Positions 1-42,550 of a stretch of 42,550 nucleotides of DNA are shown one piece after another (the first letter of the stretch is position 1; every line of letters begins with the position of its first letter). The notes under the pieces are model-generated. The model saw nothing but the letters and a program-made list of their open reading frames with translations. It was not told the DNA's origin and made no database searches. This DNA is from a virus (Duplodnaviria > Caudoviricetes), in the IMG/VR virus record IMGVR_UViG_3300033509_000070, positions 1 through 42,550 of that record, one strand, 5' to 3'. A program made the position numbers and the translations under genes.

Positions 1-6
1 AAGGCA

Positions 7-15
7 TGATAATAT
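7..15 (+). promoter_or_regulatory. Extended -10 (TGaTAATAT) of an early promoter; -35 lies outside the window
   Basis: Same TGnTAATAT as the promoter at 3023-3031. It precedes the AAAGAAAGAGG RBS at 55-65. Confidence 0.45.
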
Positions 16-71
16 GAGTATATAAATTAATTAAATTTATGTATTACATTAAAAAAAGAAAGAGGTTTAAA

Positions 72-953
72 ATGAATAACTCGCAAGTAGTTCACGCATT
101 TTTTTATCAAGAAAAAACTGGAAAAACAAACGGAAAAGCTCCATCATGTCATTTTGAAAATGAGAAATTTTTCTCGTATGGCACAATTATAGGGCAAATA
201 GTAAAGGGTAAAAATAATAAAAACATTTTAATCACTTCATATAATAGCCATTCAAACACTACGGCAAAACATTTAAGTGCTTTAAGATATGCATGCCCAT
301 ATGATATAGTAGAATTAAATACTATTAGGGGGCAATCAAGCTTTTATATAGAAGAGCAAGTAAAAAAATCACTTGAATATTTAAGCGAATATGATGAAAA
401 TTTATTTTCAAAAAAAGATAATAGGGATGAATTTACAAATAAATATGAATCACTTGAAAAAATAAACAATTTATTATACAATGTTAAATTTACAAAGAAA
501 ATAAAAAATAAATATGAATCTATTCATGATGAAAGTAAAATAAAAGAATTAAAAAGTAAAATAAAAGAAAAACAAAAAAAAGAGCATGAAAAACTAGAAA
601 AAGAATTAAAATCATATATTAAAAATAACAATTTTTCTCAATTATGCGGTCTTGTTTATAGTCGTTTTTCTACTATTGATAATAAGTTAAAAGCAAAATT
701 AAAAAAATATATACAACCTGATAATGATGTGAGCATTATATATTTTAATGGTGATTACCTCAAAACATCTCAAAACATTAAAGTTGATAAAGTAGAGGCA
801 TGTGTTTTAATTAGATTATGGAAAAATAATAAATTAAAGCATGGCATGACTATTTTAGGATATACAGTTTTAGAAGTAAACAAAGATTTTATAAAAGTAG
901 GATGTCATAAAATTACAACCGATAATCTAAACAAATTATATAATGAGATGTAA
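72..953 (+). CDS. Phage early hypothetical protein (SYxT...SxTTxKH type N-terminal domain)
   Basis: The ORF track gives 39..953, but ATG 72 follows the AAGAGG RBS and is the more likely start. Motifs FSYGTIIG and SNTTAKH recur in phage early proteins. Confidence 0.8.
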   Translation: MNNSQVVHAFFYQEKTGKTNGKAPSCHFENEKFFSYGTIIGQIVKGKNNKNILITSYNSHSNTTAKHLSALRYACPYDIVELNTIRGQSSFYIEEQVKKSLEYLSEYDENLFSKKDNRDEFTNKYESLEKINNLLYNVKFTKKIKNKYESIHDESKIKELKSKIKEKQKKEHEKLEKELKSYIKNNNFSQLCGLVYSRFSTIDNKLKAKLKKYIQPDNDVSIIYFNGDYLKTSQNIKVDKVEACVLIRLWKNNKLKHGMTILGYTVLEVNKDFIKVGCHKITTDNLNKLYNEM

Positions 954-996
954 AAAATAATTTATATAGTTGTTAGTTCATAAGAGGGGTAAAATC

Positions 997-1158
997 ATGG
1001 CTTTAGATATAAAATTTAAAGATAACATAAAATCAGATATTAATGCAATAGAGGCATTAAATGTTATAAAGGATTATACAAACTTAAATAACTATAAGGA
1101 TGTTATAAAACTTTTAATATTTGAAAAACAAAAGAAAATAAAAAGAAAGGTAGGTTAA
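997..1158 (+). CDS. Small hypothetical protein
   Basis: In-frame ATG 997 after GAGGGG within ORF 970..1158. Confidence 0.65.
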   Translation: MALDIKFKDNIKSDINAIEALNVIKDYTNLNNYKDVIKLLIFEKQKKIKRKVG

Positions 1159-1159
1159 T

Positions 1160-1378
1160 ATGGTTATTTGTTTAGAATGTGGTACAGACTTTGTAAAGGT
1201 TGATACAATAGAATTATGTCATGGATGTTATATAAAAAAATATACAAAACCTGATTTAATTTGTAAAGACTGCGAAAATAAACTTTCATCCAATGATATT
1301 ATTTTAGAGGCTGGAAAAGAGTCATGCCCAAGTTGTGGTAATACTGGCAATATATGGGATGCGATAACCTTTGTGTAA
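1160..1378 (+). CDS. Double zinc-ribbon protein
   Basis: Four CxxC pairs (CLEC, CHGC, CKDC, CPSC); AGGTAGG RBS. Confidence 0.75.
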   Translation: MVICLECGTDFVKVDTIELCHGCYIKKYTKPDLICKDCENKLSSNDIILEAGKESCPSCGNTGNIWDAITFV

Positions 1379-1394
1379 TAAATAGGTTACATTA

Positions 1395-1457
1395 TATGTA
1401 AATAAATGTAACAAATATGATACAATGTATTGAATAAGTAAAGTTATATAGTATAAT
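1395..1457 (+). promoter_or_regulatory. Early promoter with upstream direct-repeat box
   Basis: Box TATGTAAAtaAATGTAAC 1395-1412, TTGAAT 1430-35, 16-nt spacer, TATAAT 1452-57. Confidence 0.75.
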
Positions 1458-1485
1458 ATAGATATAAAAGAAAGAGGTAAAAACA

Positions 1486-1716
1486 ATGGCTAAATTAATC
1501 AATTTTTCAATTAGTGAAACATCGGGACGTACATTTGAGTTAAGCCTTGAGGATTTACAAAAAGCCTATATCGAATTAGGTGAAGAGCTTAATGACGATG
1601 TAACAATAGAAGACATGATAACTGAAGTTTTAGGTGATGACCTTACAAATTTAGATGAATTTGAAAAGAATAACGATTATTTTGAATGGAATTTAGAAGA
1701 GGTGAATAATGTCTAA
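1486..1716 (+). CDS. Small acidic hypothetical protein
   Basis: 76 aa, very D/E-rich, strong RBS, own promoter. Confidence 0.8.
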   Translation: MAKLINFSISETSGRTFELSLEDLQKAYIELGEELNDDVTIEDMITEVLGDDLTNLDEFEKNNDYFEWNLEEVNNV

Positions 1717-1733
1717 TAATAACTATATAAATA

Positions 1734-1796
1734 ATTGTAAATAATTGTAACATATATGACGCAATGTGTTAAATAAGTAAAATTATATAGTATAAT
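1734..1796 (+). promoter_or_regulatory. Early promoter with upstream direct-repeat box
   Basis: Box ATTGTAAAtaATTGTAAC 1734-51, TTAAAT 1769-74, TATAAT 1791-96. Confidence 0.7.
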
Positions 1797-1823
1797 ATAG
1801 ATATAAAAGAAAGAGGCAAAAAC

Positions 1824-2564
1824 ATGATAACAACAAAACAAACACTAACAGAATTAAAAAATAAATTATGTATTACACATACTTATTGCCCATGTTTTGA
1901 GGGATTTTATGAAACTTCATTAAGTAGTATAATGGATATAAGTGAGTGGGATTTATTTGACAATGCTAACGCAGTTAATGAAGACTTGCAACGTTTTATA
2001 GTAACTGAGGCTGATTGTGCATATTTTGACCATAGAAGATGCGAAATAGATATTTCAAAAAATATAATTGATTATTTTAATGATTATTTTAAAGAAAATG
2101 ATTTAATGGTTAAATTTAAGTTTGAAAGTTTATATTCTCCAAAAGAATACAATTTTTCTACAAATAGTATAAATATTAAAGTAGTATATACAACCGATTT
2201 TATAAGATTTTTAAATGATTATACGCATAAATATATTAATGAGTTTAAAGAGTTTATTAAAAATCGTTATACATCACGTAGTGGTTTTATATCCTATTAC
2301 TCTAATAATTATATTGACTGGTTTGAATTTTTAAATAAAGATACTTTAATAGATAACGAAAACATGCATATATTAGGATGTTTTTTAGACTTCTATTTTA
2401 ATAATGAAAACGATGATATAAATGAATATATATATGATTATGTATATGAAAAAATGCGGTCTAACAGTTGCATAACAGAGTATCTAAATTATGACGCTCT
2501 TATTGATGCAGTTAATAAAAAGTTTAATTTAAATATAGGGTATTTAGAAGAGTTAGAAAAGTAA
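1824..2564 (+). CDS. Acidic phage early hypothetical protein
   Basis: 246 aa. Motifs PCFEGFYET, SPKEYNFSTN and TSRSGFISYY are typical of a widespread phage early family. Confidence 0.85.
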   Translation: MITTKQTLTELKNKLCITHTYCPCFEGFYETSLSSIMDISEWDLFDNANAVNEDLQRFIVTEADCAYFDHRRCEIDISKNIIDYFNDYFKENDLMVKFKFESLYSPKEYNFSTNSINIKVVYTTDFIRFLNDYTHKYINEFKEFIKNRYTSRSGFISYYSNNYIDWFEFLNKDTLIDNENMHILGCFLDFYFNNENDDINEYIYDYVYEKMRSNSCITEYLNYDALIDAVNKKFNLNIGYLEELEK

Positions 2565-2566
2565 TT

Positions 2567-2630
2567 AATATAAACAATTGTAACATCATATAAATAAAGT
2601 ATTGTAAAATATATAAAAGTATAGTAATAT
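2567..2630 (+). promoter_or_regulatory. Early promoter with upstream direct-repeat box
   Basis: Box AATATAAAcaATTGTAAC 2567-84, TTGTAA 2602-07, 17-nt spacer, TAATAT 2625-30. Confidence 0.7.
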
Positions 2631-2651
2631 AAATAAAGAAAGTAGGCAAGC

Positions 2652-2789
2652 ATGGATAATCAAATTTTAACAATTATTTTAATTGTAGTATCAATTTATT
2701 TAATGGGATTTTTACACGCTAAACATTTATATAAACCTACATTTTATAGTGATTTATTTAACAGATTAAGAAAACGCTCAAACGTTTAG
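2652..2789 (+). CDS. 45-aa single-TM microprotein (not in ORF track)
   Basis: MDNQILTIILIVVSIYLMGFLHAKH...; follows a promoter and AGTAGG. Confidence 0.65.
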   Translation: MDNQILTIILIVVSIYLMGFLHAKHLYKPTFYSDLFNRLRKRSNV

Positions 2790-2805
2790 AAAGGTAAAAA
2801 GTAAA

Positions 2806-2979
2806 ATGAAAAATCAAGTATTATTTTTAATAGTGGGGTTATCAATCGGCATGCTAATAATGATTAATCAAGTATGTAGACAAAAAGATAGTACAATAAG
2901 GCTATTAATGAAAAATAGCAACAATGTAGAATCTATTCAATCATGCCCAAAAAATCTACCTATATTAAATATTAAGTAA
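2806..2979 (+). CDS. 57-aa single-TM microprotein (not in ORF track)
   Basis: MKNQVLFLIVGLSIGMLIMINQVCRQ...; GAAAGGT RBS. Confidence 0.65.
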   Translation: MKNQVLFLIVGLSIGMLIMINQVCRQKDSTIRLLMKNSNNVESIQSCPKNLPILNIK

Positions 2980-3031
2980 TGTAAATTAATACAAATAATA
3001 TATTGTAATTAAATTAAAAGTATGATAATAT
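2968..3031 (+). promoter_or_regulatory. Early promoter
   Basis: Half-site AATGTAAA 2978-85, TTGTAA 3003-08, 17-nt spacer, TGaTAATAT to 3031. Confidence 0.7.
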
Positions 3032-3057
3032 ATAAATATAAAAGAAAGAGGTAAATC

Positions 3058-3243
3058 ATGGAAACAATTTTACAAAGTTTAACAAGAATTGAAAACATTA
3101 TTTATTCTGTAGCTTATGACGATTTAACGCCATATTTACAAGGCGTTAGGGATGTTATTAACATTGTTAATGGTGAAGAGCCTAGCAATGATGTTGCAGA
3201 TACTATAATGCGTAATTTAAAAGACCTACAGTTAGGAGAATAA
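3058..3243 (+). CDS. Small hypothetical protein
   Basis: 61 aa; AAAGAAAGAGG RBS. Confidence 0.8.
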   Translation: METILQSLTRIENIIYSVAYDDLTPYLQGVRDVINIVNGEEPSNDVADTIMRNLKDLQLGE

Positions 3244-3245
3244 AC

Positions 3246-3815
3246 ATGACATTAACAAAAGTAAAAAAGACTAGAAAAATAAAAGAACATGGAATATTTA
3301 AAACACTTGGATTTTATAATCTAAAAGAATTAGAGGATTTTAAAAAAGATGTCCAAGAAAACCACAAAGAAAATTGTTTATTTAATGATGAAGAGTTTGA
3401 AGAGTTAAGCGACAATGAAGTGTTTGAAAAAATGCATGATGACATATCAATGTTTTATGACGATGAAAAAGAGCTATTAAATAAAACACTAGATAATAAT
3501 ATTATATGTATAGGCTCATTGGGTTTATGGAATGGTAGAAAATCAGGTTATAAAATTTTAGGTAATAATTTAAATGAAGTTTTAACTTCTTTTGATTGTG
3601 ACGATGTAAAGATTTTTGCCGATAGATTTAATATAAAATCAATTGCAAGTCATCATGATGGTACTAATTATTATACTTTTAGATTAATAAAATCTATGGA
3701 TAATATTGATAATCTATGTAATAAAATCTATGTAGGGGACAATATAAGTAACTCAATGTTAAATTATTATACATCACCTTTAGGGCATGAAATACAAAAA
3801 ATATACGGCTATTAA
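3246..3815 (+). CDS. Phage early hypothetical protein
   Basis: 189 aa; motifs LGLWNGRKSGYK and SHHDGTNYY; AGGAG RBS. Confidence 0.85.
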   Translation: MTLTKVKKTRKIKEHGIFKTLGFYNLKELEDFKKDVQENHKENCLFNDEEFEELSDNEVFEKMHDDISMFYDDEKELLNKTLDNNIICIGSLGLWNGRKSGYKILGNNLNEVLTSFDCDDVKIFADRFNIKSIASHHDGTNYYTFRLIKSMDNIDNLCNKIYVGDNISNSMLNYYTSPLGHEIQKIYGY

Positions 3816-3830
3816 TCTAATTAATAGACT

Positions 3831-3850
3831 TATATATATATATATATATA
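3831..3850. repeat. (TA)10 microsatellite
   Basis: Read directly from the sequence. Confidence 0.9.
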
Positions 3851-3863
3851 AATACCTCTTTCT

Positions 3864-3894
3864 ATGGGCTTTTAACGTACTTAAGCCCATTTTT
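3864..3894 (+). terminator. Probable intrinsic terminator
   Basis: ATGGGCTT...AAGCCCAT followed by a T run, downstream of ORF 3246..3815. Confidence 0.55.
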
Positions 3895-3927
3895 ATTATA
3901 TTATTTAAACGGCACGTTGCTGTTTGT

Positions 3928-3992
3928 TTTGTAACAAATTGTAAATATAGTACATATAGACTATTGTATTTTAAATAAAATAGTGTTATTAT
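3928..3992 (+). promoter_or_regulatory. Early promoter with upstream direct-repeat box
   Basis: Box TTTGTAACaaATTGTAAA 3928-45, TTGTAT 3964-69, 17-nt spacer, TGtTATTAT to 3992. Confidence 0.75.
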
Positions 3993-4041
3993 AAATATAT
4001 AAAGAGGTAAGACAAACAAAACAAATTGAAAGAGGTAAAAC

Positions 4042-5331
4042 ATGAATGCATTACAAAACAAAAACACTTTAAGTGTTGACAATTTAATCATAGGATATTC
4101 AAAAGAATATAAATCTAAAATTAAAATTGATATTGAATTAAAAATAAAAAATAATGTTAAAAGTTGGGAAGACTTAAGCACATTAAACAATGTTATTGAA
4201 TTGAGCATGTCGGCTAGTGTAGGTAATAGCATGGGCGGTCAATGTTTAGACAGTATCAAAGAATTAGCATTAAAAAATGATATTGAATATAAAAACAATA
4301 TGACTAAAAATAAATTAATTGAATTGATTGATATATGGCAAAAATACCACTTAAACGACTTGCAAGCAATGAGCAAAAGACAGTTTGAGTTATTCAAAAA
4401 GCATGGTAATGATGAATTATTTTTGAATATGTGTAAAGTAGAAGAGGCAAGGAAGAAAGCAACTTGCAGTTATTCAAGTTTTGATTACCATGATAAAATA
4501 AATCTATTTTTTAGTATTTATGATATGCAAAATATGGAAAAAAGAAAAGAACTTGAGGCACGAAAAAAAGAACTAAAAACAATAATTGATTTATACCCAC
4601 ATGAAGCTACAAAAGGATACCAAGAGGAACATACAACAGATTGTAAGATTGATTTAACATTCTTAAATATTGAATTTAAACCTATTGTAATTAATAATTA
4701 CGGTCATAGGGCAATGTCAACAACTAGATACTACAATCACAAGCAATTTGGATGCAAAAGAAAATACATATATAAATATGAGCGTCAAAACATAACAAAA
4801 GAGATTAGGAGCATAGACAATAAATTAAATAATGATGTTAATTTATATAAATATGGTACTAGCTGGCTTTTCAAAATTATTCCCAATGAAATAATAAACG
4901 AATTGCATGCCATTGTTGAGACTTTGAGCAATGATGTAAATTTAATTAATGAAGTCATAAATGATGATTTTACAAGTAAGTTAAAACATGATATTGTTAA
5001 TAAAGGCTTAACAAAAAATAAATTATGGGGCAATCAAAGTTGTATTGAATATGAAATAACATTAAAATATAAAGAAAATCAATATACTTTTAGCTTTTAT
5101 ACTGGTATAGCTCATGCACATCCAACAATAAATGATATTTTAGAATGTTTACAATCTGATTGTAGTATGTTATATAATTATGATAATTTAGATGATTATG
5201 CAAGCGACATGGGTATAGAAAAACCATCTGAAGCAGTAACTTCATGGGATGCAATTAATAACCAATATAATGAGCTTAAAAATCTTTTCAATGATGATTT
5301 TGATATGTTTTTAAATAGTGATATTAGTTAG
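4042..5331 (+). CDS. Multi-domain phage early hypothetical protein
   Basis: 429 aa. Motifs GGQCLD, WQKYHLNDLQA, YKYGTSWL and a C-terminal FYTG...PTINDILECLQSD domain. AAGAGG RBS. Confidence 0.85.
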   Translation: MNALQNKNTLSVDNLIIGYSKEYKSKIKIDIELKIKNNVKSWEDLSTLNNVIELSMSASVGNSMGGQCLDSIKELALKNDIEYKNNMTKNKLIELIDIWQKYHLNDLQAMSKRQFELFKKHGNDELFLNMCKVEEARKKATCSYSSFDYHDKINLFFSIYDMQNMEKRKELEARKKELKTIIDLYPHEATKGYQEEHTTDCKIDLTFLNIEFKPIVINNYGHRAMSTTRYYNHKQFGCKRKYIYKYERQNITKEIRSIDNKLNNDVNLYKYGTSWLFKIIPNEIINELHAIVETLSNDVNLINEVINDDFTSKLKHDIVNKGLTKNKLWGNQSCIEYEITLKYKENQYTFSFYTGIAHAHPTINDILECLQSDCSMLYNYDNLDDYASDMGIEKPSEAVTSWDAINNQYNELKNLFNDDFDMFLNSDIS

Positions 5332-5349
5332 TAAAGAAAGGGTAATAAA

Positions 5350-5697
5350 ATGTGTAATGTGCTTTTTAAAACATCTAAAAATATAAAAAAGATATTTATA
5401 CAAATTTGTAAAGAATATTCATGGATGCATCCTGATTTTTATTATCTAATAACATATAATGAAACATTGCAAAAGTTTATTAATATAAAAGTTATTGAAG
5501 AATTTTTTAATAATGATACCAATGTAGAATTATATTATAATGAAATAAAGTGGAAAACAAGCGGAATCAGTAACAATAAATATTTAGATGATTATAAAAA
5601 TATTATACATGACACATTGTCTCAAAAATATAATGTTGAATATGTAACTAATTTACATAGGTTTGACTGTGATATTGTAAAGCTAGTAGAAAGGTAA
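5350..5697 (+). CDS. Hypothetical protein
   Basis: 115 aa; GAAAGGG RBS. Confidence 0.75.
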   Translation: MCNVLFKTSKNIKKIFIQICKEYSWMHPDFYYLITYNETLQKFINIKVIEEFFNNDTNVELYYNEIKWKTSGISNNKYLDDYKNIIHDTLSQKYNVEYVTNLHRFDCDIVKLVER

Positions 5698-5757
5698 AAA
5701 ATATAACTATTAGCTAAAACGTTGAGACGTTTTTATAAACACATTTAAATATAAATT

Positions 5758-5785
5758 ATAGGTTATGTATAATAACCTATTTTTT
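5758..5785 (+). terminator. Intrinsic terminator
   Basis: ATAGGTTAT-gtata-ATAACCTAT followed by TTTTT. Confidence 0.6.
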
Positions 5786-6163
5786 AATATATAAGTATAA
5801 AAATATTAAATATGTTTTTAGATGCTTAATTGATTTTTTAAAGTGTTTTAAAAGTAAGTATTTTCTATACTCTTTTAAATATACACATATTATTTATATG
5901 AGCATAACTTATATTGAATCTAATTTATATTATATAACTTATATATAGCATGGCATTATTAAAGCGTAATAGTTATGAGTAAACAAATACCGCAGTATTT
6001 GAGCGAATAACTATGAAGCGTTTATATAAAGTAAGTAAATATTGAATTTTACATAAAATAATAAAAATATCTGAGTAAATAATATAAAAATAATAAATAT
6101 ATTAAGTACCAGAATATGTTACATAAATATATATAACTTTACAATAACCTACACCAATACAAC

Positions 6164-6238
6164 TTTATTAACAATTGTAACAATATCTTAACATACTCCA
6201 TTTAATGTATTGCATTATTATTTACATTATAGTAATAT
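6164..6238 (+). promoter_or_regulatory. Early promoter
   Basis: Half-site ATTGTAAC 6174-81, TTGCAT 6210-15, 17-nt spacer, TAATAT 6233-38. Confidence 0.65.
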
Positions 6239-6269
6239 AATTGGGTAGAAAGAATTTAGGAGTTAAACC

Positions 6270-6446
6270 ATGATTAAATCATTATTAAGAACATTACTAT
6301 TATTTACATTACTTATTATTATATGTGCATTCGTAGATACTGCACAAAGAGCTTTTAATACATATCCAACATATACATTTTTTATGGTTATTATTGGATT
6401 TATAGCTACATTATGGCACTGTTTAATCAAGAGCATTATAAATTAA
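6270..6446 (+). CDS. 58-aa two-TM microprotein (not in ORF track)
   Basis: MIKSLLRTLLLFTLLIIICAFVD...TFFMVIIGFIATLWHCLIK; AGGAG RBS. Confidence 0.7.
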   Translation: MIKSLLRTLLLFTLLIIICAFVDTAQRAFNTYPTYTFFMVIIGFIATLWHCLIKSIIN

Positions 6447-6519
6447 TAGTTGCTTGTGTTAGTACCTAAAATTAATTTAAGGCACGTTAAAAGCTCTTAT
6501 ATATACAGGTAATTTATAT

Positions 6520-6583
6520 AATGTAAATAATTGTAACATCATCTATATAAAGTATTGTAATTAATATAGATTAGTTGTATTAT
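6520..6583 (+). promoter_or_regulatory. Early promoter with upstream direct-repeat box
   Basis: Box AATGTAAAtaATTGTAAC 6520-37, TTGTAA 6555-60, 17-nt spacer, TATTAT 6578-83. Confidence 0.75.
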
Positions 6584-6613
6584 ATAAGTGTAGACAAACA
6601 AAGAGGTATAAAA

Positions 6614-6730
6614 GTGAATTTAATTAAAAAAATAACTAACAATAGTGAAATAATCATTGGTTTAACAATTATATTAGCAATAGTTATTTATTGTATTAAT
6701 AATTGTGGGGTAAACTATTATGCAGGATAA
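6614..6730 (+). CDS. 38-aa single-TM microprotein (not in ORF track)
   Basis: GTG start after AAGAGG; IIIGLTIILAIVIYCI. Confidence 0.65.
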   Translation: MNLIKKITNNSEIIIGLTIILAIVIYCINNCGVNYYAG

Positions 6731-6860
6731 AATAAAAATTGTAAATTTAATAAACATTAAAAATGATGACATTATGTTGAATTTTGAAGAGACTATAAAA
6801 TTTGGATACAATCCAAGTATATTATTTCAAAACAACCAAAGATTAATAATTGTAAAGTAA
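6720..6860 (+). CDS. 46-aa hypothetical protein (not in ORF track)
   Basis: MQDKIKIVNLINIKNDDIML...; GGGGT RBS; overlaps the upstream stop. Confidence 0.5.
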   Translation: MQDKIKIVNLINIKNDDIMLNFEETIKFGYNPSILFQNNQRLIIVK

Positions 6861-6894
6861 TATTACAAAATATAATAAATATAAAATAAAACGC

Positions 6895-6924
6895 TTGACA
6901 AAGTGTTATTAGTCATGTTATAAT
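6895..6924 (+). promoter_or_regulatory. Consensus sigma70 promoter
   Basis: TTGACA 6895-6900, 18-nt spacer, TGtTATAAT to 6924. Confidence 0.85.
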
Positions 6925-6955
6925 AAGGGAGTAAACAAAAAAGAAAGAGGTCATC

Positions 6956-7159
6956 ATGTTAAAATCATTACTACTATTTACAATTAAATCATTTATTGCA
7001 ACGGCAATTCTATTTACATTTATCAGCTTATTTGTATACAATTTAGATATACAAGAGTCTCACTGGAAAGGTAATAAACAAATAATTACTAATCAATATT
7101 CTATTGTACAAGCATTAGAACCATTAGAGCTATTAGATAGCTATTTTAATGAAAAGTAA
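6956..7159 (+). CDS. 67-aa single-TM protein
   Basis: Hydrophobic N-terminus; AAAGAAAGAGG RBS. Confidence 0.8.
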   Translation: MLKSLLLFTIKSFIATAILFTFISLFVYNLDIQESHWKGNKQIITNQYSIVQALEPLELLDSYFNEK

Positions 7160-7194
7160 ATAACTCCATAAACTATCCCTAATTCCAAGTTATT

Positions 7195-7223
7195 AGCCTA
7201 CTATTTAATATAGTAGGCTTTTT
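7195..7223 (+). terminator. Intrinsic terminator ending the early arm
   Basis: AGCCTACTAT-ttaat-ATAGTAGGCT followed by TTTT. Confidence 0.85.
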
Positions 7224-7465
7224 ATTATATATTCTATATTAGAGCATATAAGACGATTTAAACGCTACTAAATTATTTATGGTATATTTGTACCTAAACA
7301 ATATTTAACAAGCATTAGATGTCATTGTAGGCTTGCATGCTATTACATTAATGAATCGTTTATATAATCTATCTTATATAATATAATAAATATATAGTAT
7401 GTAGTGGGATGTTCTATTGGCATGCTTTATTAAACGGTTACGTTTATGGTGATTATGTGTATAGT

Positions 7466-7540
7466 TATGTTAAGATATATTAATTTATATATTGTTAAGT
7501 AATGTAAAGTTATGTTACGTATTGTTAAGTTATATTAATA
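7466..7540. repeat. Degenerate 10-bp tandem array (consensus wwTGTTAAGT)
   Basis: attgttaagt/aatgtaaagt/tatgttacgt/attgttaagt/tatattaata at 7491-7540, plus two units at 7466-85. Confidence 0.7.
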
Positions 7541-7818
7541 ACAATTCTTAATACGCCCCCTCTTCTTTATATTGCTTAATGATTGAGAGTGGTACCGAGG
7601 GGCTTAGATAATATATAAATTGAGTAAAATAAATGAATTATACATAATATATAAAATCACGAGAATAAATAGGCTATACATAAGTTACGAACATATAACT
7701 TACGCCCTATAAAAAGTATACCTATACCCCCCAATAAAGGTTTAACATATATTATAGCATACATTAAGTTAGTTAATTGTTACTATAACAAACTGCGCGT
7801 TGCCGTTTGAATTAACTA

Positions 7819-8013
7819 TTAACCCTTTACTAATCTACAAAATGCAGTTACAAATTTAATAGATATAATTTCTTTTTTATAGAATCCTATGCCCATGTAT
7901 TTATCTAACACTTCATTTAAATTTTCTGGCTTGTCTATTAATGTTACATATTCTGTATCACTACAAGTTATAATTTCGTATAGATATGTATTTTTATATT
8001 CTGTTTTATTCAT
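7819..8013 (-). CDS. Hypothetical protein
   Basis: 64 aa; GAAAGGA RBS. Confidence 0.7.
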   Translation of the reverse strand: MNKTEYKNTYLYEIITCSDTEYVTLIDKPENLNEVLDKYMGIGFYKKEIISIKFVTAFCRLVKG

Positions 8014-9997: not shown

Positions 9998-10486
9998 TTA
10001 ATCCCACCAAGAGCGAGAATATTTATTTATCATAAACCAAATTCTATCCCAATGGTATTGTTCTAGTTCATAGTTATCTTTAATAAACTTTCTATATAGT
10101 TTTTCTTTCGGATGATTATTATCCCTATTTCTAAAGTCTAATAACCAATCTTCATATCCTTCTGGTTCGCTTCTAAACGAATCTAAATCTCTATATCGAT
10201 AGATATGACCTAAAGTTATATCAATACGCCTTAAATCACGTTTGTAAAATACGTGGTTTTGATATTTCAGTATTACTGACCTAACTAATTTTAGTTTAGC
10301 CTCTAAATATTCTAAAGAGCCAACTTCAAAATCATAATCCATATCATTAAAAATAATTGGAAGTAATACTTTACATCTTTTTATTTTGTATGGTAGATTT
10401 TTAAAAAAATAATATATGTTTACTATTTTCCAATTTGGATTAACTATATCATATAGCCAATCAGATATTTTTTCTTTTATTTTCAT
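9998..10486 (-). CDS. Conserved phage hypothetical protein (C-terminal WWD)
   Basis: 162 aa; DMDYDF motif and terminal SWWD. Confidence 0.8.
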   Translation of the reverse strand: MKIKEKISDWLYDIVNPNWKIVNIYYFFKNLPYKIKRCKVLLPIIFNDMDYDFEVGSLEYLEAKLKLVRSVILKYQNHVFYKRDLRRIDITLGHIYRYRDLDSFRSEPEGYEDWLLDFRNRDNNHPKEKLYRKFIKDNYELEQYHWDRIWFMINKYSRSWWD

Positions 10487-10916
10487 TTTTATTTTTCCTA
10501 ACTTTATTTAGCCAACTACTTATAGGAACAGTAGCTACTGGTATAGCATATCTAGTTACTAATGTAGTTATAATTAGCGGTGTCATTATTCTAGTTCCCT
10601 TAATTATATTATCTATATTAGGCAGTTTTCTAGTTTTTAATTCATTACATAAATTTTCTTTATGTCTATTAATTAAGTTGTCTAAATATTTACTAATGGA
10701 TATCCCAGCTATAGTGCCTATTATTGTTTGAAACATTAAGCTAGGTTTTCTTTCTTTAGGTATATTATTTTGTAAATATATAGCTCCACAATATACTGTT
10801 CCAGCAAATAGAGATTCTATAAGTGGAAGATTTCTATCTATCTTTAAAGAGAATGCTTTATTTTCTGTTTTTTTTACAAATCTTTGGACAGATTTATTCA
10901 ATGCTATTATCTTCAC
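10461..10916 (-). CDS. Membrane protein, host-like (C-terminal half of a pair)
   Basis: Hydrophobic helices; motifs IPKERKPSL and TRYAIPVATVPISSWL; GTGA overlap with the upstream gene. Confidence 0.75.
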   Translation of the reverse strand: MKIIALNKSVQRFVKKTENKAFSLKIDRNLPLIESLFAGTVYCGAIYLQNNIPKERKPSLMFQTIIGTIAGISISKYLDNLINRHKENLCNELKTRKLPNIDNIIKGTRIMTPLIITTLVTRYAIPVATVPISSWLNKVRKNKNENKRKNI

Positions 10917-11389
10917 TTATCTTTCCTCGATTTAATTCTATCAGCTATTGGCTTTACTGCTACAAACTTTAAAAATGCAAATAATGGGAGTAAAGATATT
11001 TTTATAAACCTATTCGATAAAGATTTATAAGAATCGCAAATTTTATTATTTTGATAATAAATACTATTTTTACTATCCTTTAATTTATTTGAAACTTTAT
11101 CTAAATATTTATTTAAAGGTATAAATATTGCAAATGCAGATACCAAATCTACTAATCCAGTAGCTATAGAATGAGAGCAAGCATATACTTTATCTTTTTT
11201 ACTTTCGCTATCTTTAGATGGAGTTAGTAGTATTGTAGATGGTCTTATAGCTATGGCTATTCCAGCTACGAATAAGCTATTAAATAATGCAGGATTAGAG
11301 TCTGCACTTTTAATTATTGATTGTATATTTTTTGATTTTTCTATTTTGTTTGCTATCTTAGTATAGATATTTATTTGTTTAATATTCAA
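10913..11389 (-). CDS. Membrane protein, host-like (N-terminal half of a pair)
   Basis: Motifs NPALF and IRPSTILLTP...KKDKVYACSHSIATG. TTG 11389 follows GGAG (the track starts at 11401). Confidence 0.75.
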   Translation of the reverse strand: MNIKQINIYTKIANKIEKSKNIQSIIKSADSNPALFNSLFVAGIAIAIRPSTILLTPSKDSESKKDKVYACSHSIATGLVDLVSAFAIFIPLNKYLDKVSNKLKDSKNSIYYQNNKICDSYKSLSNRFIKISLLPLFAFLKFVAVKPIADRIKSRKDK

Positions 11390-11757
11390 TCTACACTCCA
11401 AAATTTCGGGTCTTGTCTATAAATATTTATAGCCATATTTAGTCTAGCATAATCTTCGTTAAAGATAATTTCTTCATAAATTGTTTGTTCTTTTAAGTAC
11501 TCTTCTAGTTCATTAAATTCTTTTTTATTTAATGTTAAATAAATTGGAGAAAGATAATCTAATGAGCGCAAATATTTTTCACTATTTAGATAGTTTTCTA
11601 ATTTAGAATTTATAGATTCTATAGATGCTATTTCATATAAATAAATTTTTCTACTACTTAAAAAAGATGGGTAATCGATAGATATAGACATCACTGTTAG
11701 CTCAGTAGTTTGAGAATTTAATTCTTCATATTCGATTTGAATTTTTCTTATCGTCAT
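11386..11757 (-). CDS. Hypothetical protein
   Basis: 123 aa; GGAG RBS. Confidence 0.7.
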   Translation of the reverse strand: MTIRKIQIEYEELNSQTTELTVMSISIDYPSFLSSRKIYLYEIASIESINSKLENYLNSEKYLRSLDYLSPIYLTLNKKEFNELEEYLKEQTIYEEIIFNEDYARLNMAINIYRQDPKFWSVD

Positions 11758-12055
11758 TTATTTTTCTCCATCTAAACTCTCTAATTTTTTGCAATATTAT
11801 TTGTTTATTTTCATTATCTATATTTGAAAAATATTTATCTCTTACTTCTTTACTTATCTTTATTTCATAGACTTTTATGTCTCTATTATTTTGAAAATAT
11901 TTTTTACATTGCTCACAAAGTATTACTAAATTGTTTTCTGAATTTCCCTTTTTTGGATTTATTCTATGTCCATGCTTTTCTTTTATATTTTTAAATTTTT
12001 TACCACAGATAAAGCAAAAATTAATATTATTTTTTATTCGATTCTTTCTTTTCAT
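11726..12055 (-). CDS. HNH endonuclease-like protein
   Basis: CFICG...HGHRINP...NSENNLVILCEQC. Confidence 0.7.
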   Translation of the reverse strand: MKRKNRIKNNINFCFICGKKFKNIKEKHGHRINPKKGNSENNLVILCEQCKKYFQNNRDIKVYEIKISKEVRDKYFSNIDNENKQIILQKIREFRWRKINDDKKNSNRI

Positions 12056-12365
12056 TCAAATAGTCTTTCGTTTCCTTAAAAAATACTGCCTTAAATCTTA
12101 AATGTGCTGGCATATGAAACATCTTACTTTCTATGCCTAGAACCTTACAGGGTCTTGACCTAACCATTCTATCTTTAGCTGTTCTAAATCCAAAACTCAT
12201 AAAATTTTCAAATACTATTTGTTTTTTTGTTAATAAGATTTCTTTAAATACTTTTGGTAAAGCCTTAAGTACTCTTAATAAATTCTTTTTAGATATATTT
12301 TTATTATACTGTATAGTATCTACTAAATCTATTATTTTTATTTCTTTATATTCTTTATTCTCCAC
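12027..12365 (-). CDS. HU/IHF family DNA-binding protein
   Basis: IVFENFMSFGFRTAKDRMVR...MPAHLRFKAVFFKETKDYLN matches the HU beta-arm pattern. Confidence 0.75.
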   Translation of the reverse strand: MENKEYKEIKIIDLVDTIQYNKNISKKNLLRVLKALPKVFKEILLTKKQIVFENFMSFGFRTAKDRMVRSRPCKVLGIESKMFHMPAHLRFKAVFFKETKDYLNEKKESNKK

Positions 12366-40579: not shown

Positions 40580-42550
40580 TTGGCAGATATAGAATTTGAC
40601 ATAGTAAATAATAAAAATTTAGATGTTGAATTGACTACTAGTGCTGATTTTAATATAGATTTATTAGGATATATTAGTGGTGGAGTTGTAAACTTTTTAG
40701 GTTTAACTGATACTCCAAATTCATATGTATCTAAAACTGGAAATATAGTTATAGTAAATGAGAATGCAAACGGTCTTAAATTTGCAAATACTATACCGAT
40801 GTCTCAAGTATCTGGATTAAATGAATTTTTAACAGATGTAGTTCATGATTCTGAATATGTCCATACTGATAATAACTATACAGATGCAGAAAAATTAAAA
40901 TTATCTAATATAGAATCTAATGCACAAGTAAACGTAGTAACGGCTGTTAATTCTAAAATAGGTAATGTTGTCCTAAAAACTTCAGACATTGCCGAGGAAT
41001 CCAATCTGTACTATACAGATTTAAGGTCCAGACAATCTATATCAGAAAATATAGAGGGCATAAATTATAATAGTTCAACTGGTGTATTTTCATTAACTAA
41101 TGGATATATTATACCTACATTATCTAACTTTAATAACAAGGTAGATAAAGAATTAAATAAAGGTTTATCTGAAAATGATTTTACAGATACATTAAAATCT
41201 AAATTAGATGGAATAGAATCTGGCGCAGAAGTAAATGATGTTAATTCTGTAAATAATAAAACTGGAAATGTTTCATTAAGTACTTTTGATATTCCAGAAA
41301 ATACTAATTTATATTATACTGACGGTAGAGTTGATTCAAGAATATCTGGTCAAAAAGGAGCTATAAACGGAATAGCTTCATTAGATGCTACTGGAAAAGT
41401 TCCTAGCTCTCAACTTCCATCTACTGGTGGAGGAATTACTTATAAGGGTACTTGGGATGCTTCAACTGGAAATTATCCAACATTAACACCTAATGATGGT
41501 GAATTTTGGGTTATTAGTGTAGCTGGAACTATAAATTCCGTATCATACTCTGTTGGTGATTGGATTATATATAATGTTGGCTCTGGTTGGTCTAAAGTTC
41601 CATCTGGAAGCGCTGTAACATCTGTAAATTCAAAAACTGGTACCGTAGTCTTAACTACTACTGATATAACAGAAGGAATTAATCAATATTATACAGATAC
41701 TAAAGTAAATAATAATACTGAGGTACAAAAAGGTGTAACAGCAAATAGTTGGGGTAATCACTCTAATGCTGGATATGCTCAAGATGATGAAGTAGTTCAT
41801 TTACAAAATGATGAAACTATTTATGGAAACAAAACATTTGATGATACATTATATATTAATGATAAATTAAATGTTGGCTCAGATACTTTTGATTTAACTA
41901 ATCCTGAATTTTTAAAAGTTGATGGCGGAACATCTGCATCTGTTAATATTATATCTGCATATTCTAATTATGATGACTATGTACAATTAAATATTAAAAA
42001 TAGTAATAGTGGAGAATACGCATCATCTGACTTTGTTGCAACAGCAGATATAGGTGAAGAGGGTGCAAACTACATAGATATGGGTATAAATAACTCAAAC
42101 TATGCAAGCCCAGAATTTAATGTAGTAGAAGCCTTAGATGGATATTTATTTATTGATGGTGGTCATTTAGCTGTTGGTACAGCTACTCCAGATAAGCATT
42201 TATACTTATTTACTGGTGGCACTTTACAAGAAAATATAAGAGCTACATTAACTGATACAGATTTAACTTTAACAGTAGATATATCTGCAAATAATTTATC
42301 TGGTACTAATACTGGAGACGAAACTAACGCCACCATTAAAACAAAATTAGGTGCTGATTTAAGCAATAAATTAGATTATAATGGTAATGGTTCTAGTTTA
42401 ACTGGAATAACTTCTAGTCAGATTGGAGCAGAGCCTGCAAATGCCAATATCCAATCACACATAGGTTCGGCATCGAACCCTCACGGTGTTACTAAATCAC
42501 AAGTTGGTCTTGGTAATGTGCCAAATTTAGATACTTCTAATCCAACAAAT
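40580..42550 (+). CDS. Long tail fibre, truncated at the window end (not in ORF track)
   Basis: TTG after GAGG; open to the end. FLGLTDTP, three VNxKxGxVxLxTxDIxExxNxYYTD repeats, YKGTWDAS, NPHGVTKSQVGLGNV. Confidence 0.85.
   Translation, partial: MADIEFDIVNNKNLDVELTTSADFNIDLLGYISGGVVNFLGLTDTPNSYVSKTGNIVIVNENANGLKFANTIPMSQVSGLNEFLTDVVHDSEYVHTDNNYTDAEKLKLSNIESNAQVNVVTAVNSKIGNVVLKTSDIAEESNLYYTDLRSRQSISENIEGINYNSSTGVFSLTNGYIIPTLSNFNNKVDKELNKGLSENDFTDTLKSKLDGIESGAEVNDVNSVNNKTGNVSLSTFDIPENTNLYYTDGRVDSRISGQKGAINGIASLDATGKVPSSQLPSTGGGITYKGTWDASTGNYPTLTPNDGEFWVISVAGTINSVSYSVGDWIIYNVGSGWSKVPSGSAVTSVNSKTGTVVLTTTDITEGINQYYTDTKVNNNTEVQKGVTANSWGNHSNAGYAQDDEVVHLQNDETIYGNKTFDDTLYINDKLNVGSDTFDLTNPEFLKVDGGTSASVNIISAYSNYDDYVQLNIKNSNSGEYASSDFVATADIGEEGANYIDMGINNSNYASPEFNVVEALDGYLFIDGGHLAVGTATPDKHLYLFTGGTLQENIRATLTDTDLTLTVDISANNLSGTNTGDETNATIKTKLGADLSNKLDYNGNGSSLTGITSSQIGAEPANANIQSHIGSASNPHGVTKSQVGLGNVPNLDTSNPTN

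Follow-up and report, generated by a model that had tools for sequence, protein, structure and literature searches.

Boxed promoters in a block of small phage genes

The viral DNA analysed here, hereafter the window (42,550 nucleotides (nt); IMG/VR record IMGVR_UViG_3300033509_000070, Caudoviricetes), is a linear virus record with an estimated completeness of 39%. Genes for a myovirus head, tail sheath and baseplate and for lysis are found from 13.6 kb onward. Positions 39-7159 hold a block of small genes separated by AT-rich, promoter-like gaps. The block is presumably early, as suggested by its small genes of unknown function and its sigma-70-type promoter cores. Seven of these cores are preceded by an 18-nt direct-repeat box, WWTGTAAM-NN-WWTGTAAM, which is the subject of this analysis. 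Boxes are scored out of 16, the offset is the number of nt between the box end and the -35 hexamer, and transcription start sites (TSSs) are predicted as the start of the -10 hexamer plus 12.

The only perfect boxes in the window are located at 1395, 1734, 3928 and 6520, all on the plus strand. Two further plus-strand boxes have one mismatch (2567) and two mismatches (2968, with a perfect proximal half). An earlier note on this DNA had named the same six sites, and positions, mismatches and strand are all reproduced. The enrichment over shuffled background that its proposal entails is observed as well: positions 1-8000 contain 4 perfect boxes, whereas 1000 local dinucleotide shuffles average 0.008 and never exceed 1. 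Boxes with at most two mismatches number 36 where 13.1 ± 3.9 are expected. At offset 17/18 the seven promoters reach a summed score of 107 of 112, equalled by none of 5000 half-site-permuted motifs at their best offset (mean 78.6, maximum 106), which bears out the previously proposed fixed position 17-18 nt before the -35. The predicted box span ranges from -69..-52 to -71..-54, centred at about -61 from the TSS, in agreement with the earlier estimate of -70 to -52.

The seventh promoter, for which the note had described a perfect half-site at 6174 followed by a degenerate one, does carry a box-like site. We redefine it as a box scoring 14/16 (6174-6191), preceded by another half-site at 6164. 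The promoter with a perfect TTGACA at 6895 was said to lack the box at the activator position; it scores 12/16 at offset 17/18, yet a 14/16 box is present one helical turn upstream, at offset 28. Extra half-sites also extend from the boxes toward the -35 (offset 7). The promoters at 1430 and 1769 are recent duplicates (spacers identical at 13/17 and 16/17 positions), and those at 2602 and 6555 share 15/17 spacer positions. The seven promoters are therefore not seven independent events. A generic sigma-70 scan of 1-8000 performs at chance level (88 hits versus 82 ± 9), so that the promoters are marked by the box and their place before a ribosome-binding site rather than by the hexamers alone.

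The same arrangement is found in G208 and G209, two complete relatives of 105-109 kb reached via P0005, a homologue of the window's product of 10913-11401. Their terminases are 53-56% identical to that of the window; the structural module and the host-family genes described below are also common to all three. The downstream genes differ: tblastn of the window's open reading frames (ORFs) in 39-7159 against both genomes gives no match. Box-blind promoter calling in the three phages yields 82 rows (81 unique) and misses 3 of the 7 window promoters. A box of at least 14/16 at offset 17/18 precedes 17 of the 81 promoters, in one contiguous block per genome, while all other offsets together account for 8 rows, 5 of them at offset 7 (three phages). 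The proximal TGTAAM is near-invariant in 21 promoters, and the upstream flanks contain less than 0.2 bit. TTGACA occurs in 0/17 boxed and 31/64 unboxed promoters (Fisher p = 1.2e-4, with promoters that are not independent), extending to three related phages the earlier remark that boxed promoters have non-consensus -35 hexamers.

RpaB is a light-stress regulator of cyanobacteria. Its published consensus, HLR1, consists of two 8-nt direct repeats (G/T)TTACA(T/A)(T/A) that are 2 nt apart (Riediger et al. 2019, PMC6525291). The reverse complement of the phage box has exactly this form; four window boxes are perfect HLR1 elements and three score 14-15/16. With the predicted TSSs, the box centres lie within -66 to -45, the range of activating HLR1 sites (PMC6525291).

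Features of the window and P22-like gene clusters in host chromosomes
Coordinates	Strand	Feature	Box score (of 16)	Offset	-35	-10	Remark
39..7159	+	small-gene block, function unknown, presumed early					unknown-function or marginal PHROG hits only; scanned ORFs without Pfam hit
970..1158	+	small ORF, weakly like RHH-like proteins of G208/G209					best phage-encoded rival binder; pairwise E 0.01; no Pfam hit
1395..1412	+	box	16	17	TTGAAT 1430	TATAAT 1452	upstream of ORF 1486-1716
1724..1751	+	box 1734-1751 and third half-site 1724	16	17/18	TTAAAT 1769		upstream of ORF 1824-2564
2567..2584	+	box	15	17/18	TTGTAA 2602	TAATAT 2625	upstream of ORF 2652-2789
2968..2985	+	box, proximal half perfect	14	17/18	TTGTAA 3003	TAATAT 3026	upstream of ORF 3058-3243
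3928..3945	+	box	16	18	TTGTAT 3964	TATTAT 3987	upstream of ORF 4042-5331
6164..6191	+	three half-sites; box 6174-6191	14	18	TTGCAT 6210	TAATAT 6233	upstream of ORF 6270-6446
6520..6537	+	box	16	17/18	TTGTAA 6555	TATTAT 6578	
6849..6924	+	consensus promoter; degenerate box 6849-6866	14	28	TTGACA 6895	TATAAT 6919	18-nt spacer
7491..7528	+	four tandem degenerate half-sites, 10-bp period					noncoding zone where gene blocks converge; no obvious promoter
10461..10916	-	gene adjoining 10913..11401					weakly resembles chromosomal genes of Gastranaerophilales (25-29%, best E 5e-8); conserved in G208, G209
10913..11401	-	host-marker membrane-protein family gene					family of Gastranaerophilales chromosomes; conserved in G208, G209
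12027-12365	-	HU/IHF-like DNA-binding protein					kept across clade; family scan
L435:2521-9248		P22-like cluster (G274)					
L436:10993-18032		P22-like cluster (G058)					
L437:9513-18028		P22-like cluster (G100)					
L438:4994-11004		P22-like cluster (G053)					

A terminator-like hairpin (3906-3926) stands immediately 5' of the box at 3928. Two minus-strand half-sites 20 nt apart (6118-6145) are found in a 570-bp gap (5697-6270) with no obvious promoter. Tandem or opposed boxes also occur in long noncoding zones next to the boxed block of all three phages (window 7491-7528, G208 104592-104651, G209 51720-51869); these could be a genome end or origin to which the same factor binds. At its far end the window appears to be coding (40580-42550, plus strand); this region runs off the contig and is outside the list of closed ORFs. 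Short pieces 95-100% identical to the window are present in one DNA sequencing run labelled microbial mat (a single study, which may itself be the source), and none of the runs listed as holding window sequence is an RNA run.

The likely host, its RpaB and its own boxes

Gene content points to a likely host in Gastranaerophilales (Vampirovibrionia), non-photosynthetic relatives of cyanobacteria. The marker is the product of 10913-11401, with 252 relatives among cluster representatives and, through P0005, an Atlas family label of Melainabacteria. An alignment of 13 of its longer relatives matched 181 genome stretches, from which 78 loci were retained. Most of the loci with a name come from Gastranaerophilales or Melainabacteria; some others bear the titles Clostridium, Muribaculaceae or 'uncultured bacterium'. 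In a phylum-wide sample the family is present in 21/21 Gastranaerophilales genomes and 0/40 other Cyanobacteriota. Together with the adjoining gene it forms a pair of host-like probable membrane-protein genes (10461-11401, minus strand), and a similar pair lies side by side in the chromosome G019 (L257). G019:C22, which carries the closest chromosomal homologue, was considered as a prophage of this clade and rejected, as it does not match other window proteins.

Several searches add no host information. The direct homologue search with the 10913-11401 product returned only itself, P0005 found no match in genome contigs, and a profile comparison of the 10461-10916 product with alignment A2 was negative. 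The capsid protein matched a single distant viral locus, and the terminase gave only 22-29% matches among cultured phages, with no host indicated.

Five genomes behind host-marker loci each encode only 3-4 OmpR-type proteins. One of these is RpaB according to the NCBIfam equivalog NF045944 (362 and 365 bits, cut-off 330), which is passed in 54/61 genomes of the phylum, including 21/21 of Gastranaerophilales. The recognition helix DTRVVDVHISRLR and the wing ELILTARG do not vary across 20 oxygenic-type and 15 Gastranaerophilales rows. The DNA-binding domain is 78% identical between the two groups, compared to 33% for the two other conserved OmpR-type proteins of each host genome, whose recognition helices are unlike that of RpaB. 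We found no solved structure of RpaB. Homologues of RpaB, RpaA and NblS in Melainabacteria have been described before, with their function left open (Di Rienzi et al. 2013, PMC3787301) or their role given as unknown (bioRxiv 2025.01.21.633742). Conditional on the inferred host, the cell infected by this phage is thus predicted to encode RpaB.

The box is also enriched in the host chromosomes. In 61 Gastranaerophilales genomes, exact matches number 872 compared to 159 for reversed-pattern controls, with the box count higher in 60/61. Off-phase spacing is rare relative to normal spacing (3 versus 19 and 1 versus 10 in two genomes), all 30 inspected boxes are intergenic, and a ribosome-binding site with ATG follows in the phage's orientation at 36/70 sites, versus 10/70 in the opposite one. 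Identical 18-mers are present in oxygenic-type cyanobacterial genomes, and no enrichment was found in five non-cyanobacterial records (0/0.96 Mb, 0/0.31, 3/5.5, 0/0.88 and 0/2.7). The earlier note had linked the boxes to a host OmpR-family regulator of the HLR1/RpaB type. Both the RpaB orthologue and the same box, enriched, intergenic and mostly in the same orientation, are found in the likely host order, which supports this proposal. An 11-bp-spaced class of host boxes was discarded, being mostly one orthologous promoter recounted across many genomes; the 10-bp count of that comparison is likewise redundant and is not used.

Some host boxes stand, by eye, 17-18 or 27-28 nt before sigma-28-like promoters (TAAAG ... 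GCCGA; L197, L214, L223, L230, L235, L249). A strict sigma-28 pattern confirms 2 of the 70 sites, and RpaB may drive motility genes in Gastranaerophilales. Another recurring host promoter has, 3' of the box, GCAA or TTGAAA, then TACTTT or TTTTTA, then ATATATATAAG (L217, L220, L245, L124, L139 and others); it may be read by an alternative sigma factor. Gastranaerophilales chromosomes further contain, in synteny, a P22-like cluster of head genes for the major capsid protein, both terminase subunits (small and large) and the portal. This cluster is a candidate domesticated prophage or gene-transfer-agent-like element and adjoins a secA-like gene (labelled by eye) in two of four inspected cases. 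The phage contig L069 matches 150/251 genomes, in most of them through the terminase DNA of this cluster.

A probable role for host RpaB and its alternatives

From these sequences, we consider it probable that phosphorylated host RpaB binds the boxes and activates, in class I fashion, a block of phage promoters with weak cores. By analogy with cyanobacteria, the protein would occupy both direct repeats, head to tail, between about -70 and -53. It would recruit RNA polymerase through the alpha subunit's C-terminal domain (alpha-CTD), a contact suggested for RpaB (PMC6525291), and its activation would offset a defective -35 or -10 hexamer. With the kinase NblS/Hik33 turned phosphatase, RpaB would leave and the boxed block would fall silent, while the consensus promoters elsewhere in the phage would remain on. 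A host signal could thereby control a set of small phage genes with accessory or takeover functions. In a non-photosynthetic host this signal cannot come from photosystem II; our guess is the redox or energy state. Since perfect consensus promoters are found elsewhere in these phage genomes, transcription of the boxed block may be conditional and need not come first.

The offset is shared beyond the clade. A phage family represented by L035/L076 shows it and has 66-73% identical prophages in Gastranaerophilales. It is also seen in L020/L021/L069 and in G373, where the host link is weaker: the terminases of L069 and G373 are 42-44% and 34-35% identical (amino acids) to the host chromosomal cluster, which is only a weak hint. 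A viral scan comparing offsets gives a modest contrast of 24 clusters at offset 17-18 versus 10 at 21-22.

A number of observations weigh against activation by RpaB or against the host assignment on which it depends. Unrelated phages carry the repeat before near-consensus sigma-70 cores, at offsets of 5-7, 14-17 and 25-28 (94 clusters from 118 loci in 23/64 parts of the viral contigs). Several of these, with offsets of 5-6 or 15-16, are T5-like or jumbo phages, and their nearest relatives in culture are phages of Proteobacteria. The motif is accordingly not specific to RpaB, and its assignment rests on the host; such repeats could reflect a factor-independent element or other regulators of OmpR type. 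Both called boxed promoters of G373 are perfect TTGACA/TATAAT; an activator should be superfluous there, and the idea of activation at every box loses weight. On the host side, the -35-like element mostly follows the box at 14-15 nt, 3 nt closer than in the phage (16 cases at 14-15 nt and 5 at 16-17 among 70 sites, a post hoc pattern in which orthologues are counted). The host box counts are partly inflated by repeated elements (G015) and by orthologues, and the non-cyanobacterial controls are just five plasmid-collection records. RHH-like proteins of 46 residues are encoded near the boxed block in G208 and G209 (RHH_1 E 0.04, below the cut-off). A CRISPR link to the host was not found (12 short DNA match regions checked, none in arrays), nor was a prophage of this clade. 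These searches compared 20 kb of G208 with 301 genomes and 19.8 kb of the window with 201, scored two candidates per genome, and returned short or low-identity matches.

In several of the unrelated phages (G364, L571:4815-8070; G365, G366, G367, G369, L025), two to four tandem TGTAAA half-sites stand just before consensus promoters. This set consists of T5-like, jumbo and podovirus-like phages with offsets mostly of 5-6 or 14-17.

The alternative that survives best, although we regard it as unlikely, is that the box is a factor-independent upstream element, such as phased AT-rich alpha-CTD sites or a bending element, spread by promoter duplication. Repeats phased at about 10 bp before strong promoters in many unrelated phages would fit this reading, as would the recent duplicates among the window copies and the consensus promoters of G373. 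UP elements consist of A/T tracts at -38 to -60 and are found in any AT-rich genome. The box differs in having a conserved G and terminal C/A between unconserved flanks, and in its position at -70..-53. A factor-independent element would also fit poorly with the offset of sharply 17/18 in this clade, the lack of enrichment in the five non-cyanobacterial records and the identical 18-mers in oxygenic-type cyanobacteria.

Slightly less probable is binding by a phage protein, either RHH-like or an activator encoded in the missing 61% of the genome, in which case the boxed promoters would be middle promoters or autoregulated ones. Candidates are the RHH-like proteins in G208 and G209, which the product of 970-1158 weakly resembles; such a factor could be made first from the perfect consensus promoters elsewhere, and most scanned phage proteins have no Pfam family. 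Against this, the same site is enriched in host chromosomes and the same offset recurs in other phage families, in whose examined stretches the RHH-like proteins have no match. Among 87 scanned proteins (66 G208 entries from a list shared with G209, 2 further G208 proteins and 19 from the window) there is no sigma, helix-turn-helix or winged-helix family, only the HU/IHF-like protein. The earlier statement that no OmpR-type regulator is encoded was made on a window that is only 39% of the genome; it also holds in the complete G208 and G209, which contain no Trans_reg_C domain.

We think it improbable that another host regulator, one of the two further OmpR-type proteins or a nucleoid protein, binds the boxes. 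Several OmpR-family proteins bind similar 10-bp repeats, and both further proteins are conserved in each host genome. Their divergent recognition helices and 33% domain identity argue against them, as does the match of the box to the published RpaB consensus (PMC6525291). The least probable alternative is that RpaB binds without simple activation, damping the promoters or being titrated from host genes; the 3-nt difference from the main host geometry, the extra half-sites at offset 7 and the box arrays in noncoding zones would suit it, but position and strand match activating Synechocystis sites and the boxed promoters are those with weak cores.

Activation by host RpaB, if correct, would mean that the HLR1 circuit is older than oxygenic photosynthesis, and would be one more instance of a lytic-type phage that makes an entire gene block depend on a two-component signal of its host. 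What RpaB and NblS do in this non-photosynthetic sister lineage of the cyanobacteria has been a standing question since 2013 (PMC3787301), for which the phage boxes and enriched host sites offer a predicted regulon and sequences to use as probes. The identical recognition helix makes a direct assay of the phage promoters feasible in Synechocystis or S. elongatus, even with the host uncultured. A box at 17-18 nt is also a possible, though not specific, host marker for Gastranaerophilales phages. More tentatively, and with the odds in our view somewhat against it, the NblS-RpaB-HLR1 circuit may predate photosynthesis and be a live master regulon of Gastranaerophilales that includes sigma-28-type promoters. 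Several unrelated phage families would then each have put their first accessory genes under its control on their own, in one fixed geometry, and phages of other phyla would have done likewise with their own OmpR-type regulators. Tandem TGTAAM boxes would in that case be a widespread, overlooked class of host-state-sensing phage promoters.

Comparison with known systems

The closest counterpart is the HLR1/RpaB regulon of Synechocystis 6803 and S. elongatus (PMC6525291), with which the phage boxes share the 8+2+8 repeat and the activating window. Minus-strand activating sites in Synechocystis start at -67 (psaL), -68 (lexA), -69 (psaE) and -70 (psaC) (PMC6525291, Table S3), the same strand and start as the phage boxes, and activation of lexA was validated in that work. 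Others are found at -59 (psaA) and -54 (cpcB), and plus-strand activating sites exist as well. The strand sign is relative to the promoter, since one site between two divergent promoters is listed as '+' for cas10 and '-' for cas6-2a (PMC6525291). Activation from -70..-53 on the opposite strand is also described in bioRxiv 2023.12.07.570523. Counterparts in Synechocystis therefore exist for the spacing seen in the host (about -67) as well as for that of the phage (about -70). The regulator of the likely host is orthologous, with an identical recognition helix, and its presence in the candidate host group was already reported by Di Rienzi et al. 2013 (PMC3787301). The cyanobacterial regulon differs in that it controls photosynthesis genes, whereas the phage sites are predicted and precede small genes of unknown function in a likely non-photosynthetic host. 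The input signal must differ between the two.

Phage DNA with RpaB-type sites is not in itself without precedent. In cyanophages, HLR1 sites reportedly stand at photosynthesis-type auxiliary genes (hli). Unlike there, the phages described here have 7-8 boxed promoters per genome, at one activating offset that is kept despite different downstream genes. The cyanophage motifs are mentioned in PMC6525291, which cites Riediger 2018, and in its preprint. For Vampirovibrionia or their phages, neither HLR1 sites nor an HLR1 regulon turned up in the literature covered, from which subscription papers are largely absent.

Co-option of host master regulators, with many sites in phage promoters, is similarly known for CtrA in LPEG phages, Spo0A in phi29 and LexA in GIL01 (PMC9437464). 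CtrA is also an OmpR-family protein and activates phiCbK promoters (PMC9437464). The present case differs from these in regulator and phylum, and in that the sites are packed in one contiguous block; its outcome may be deferment or a boost. Phage use of host regulators is thus already established; the HLR1-type sites in phages of probable Vampirovibrionia hosts are the new part.

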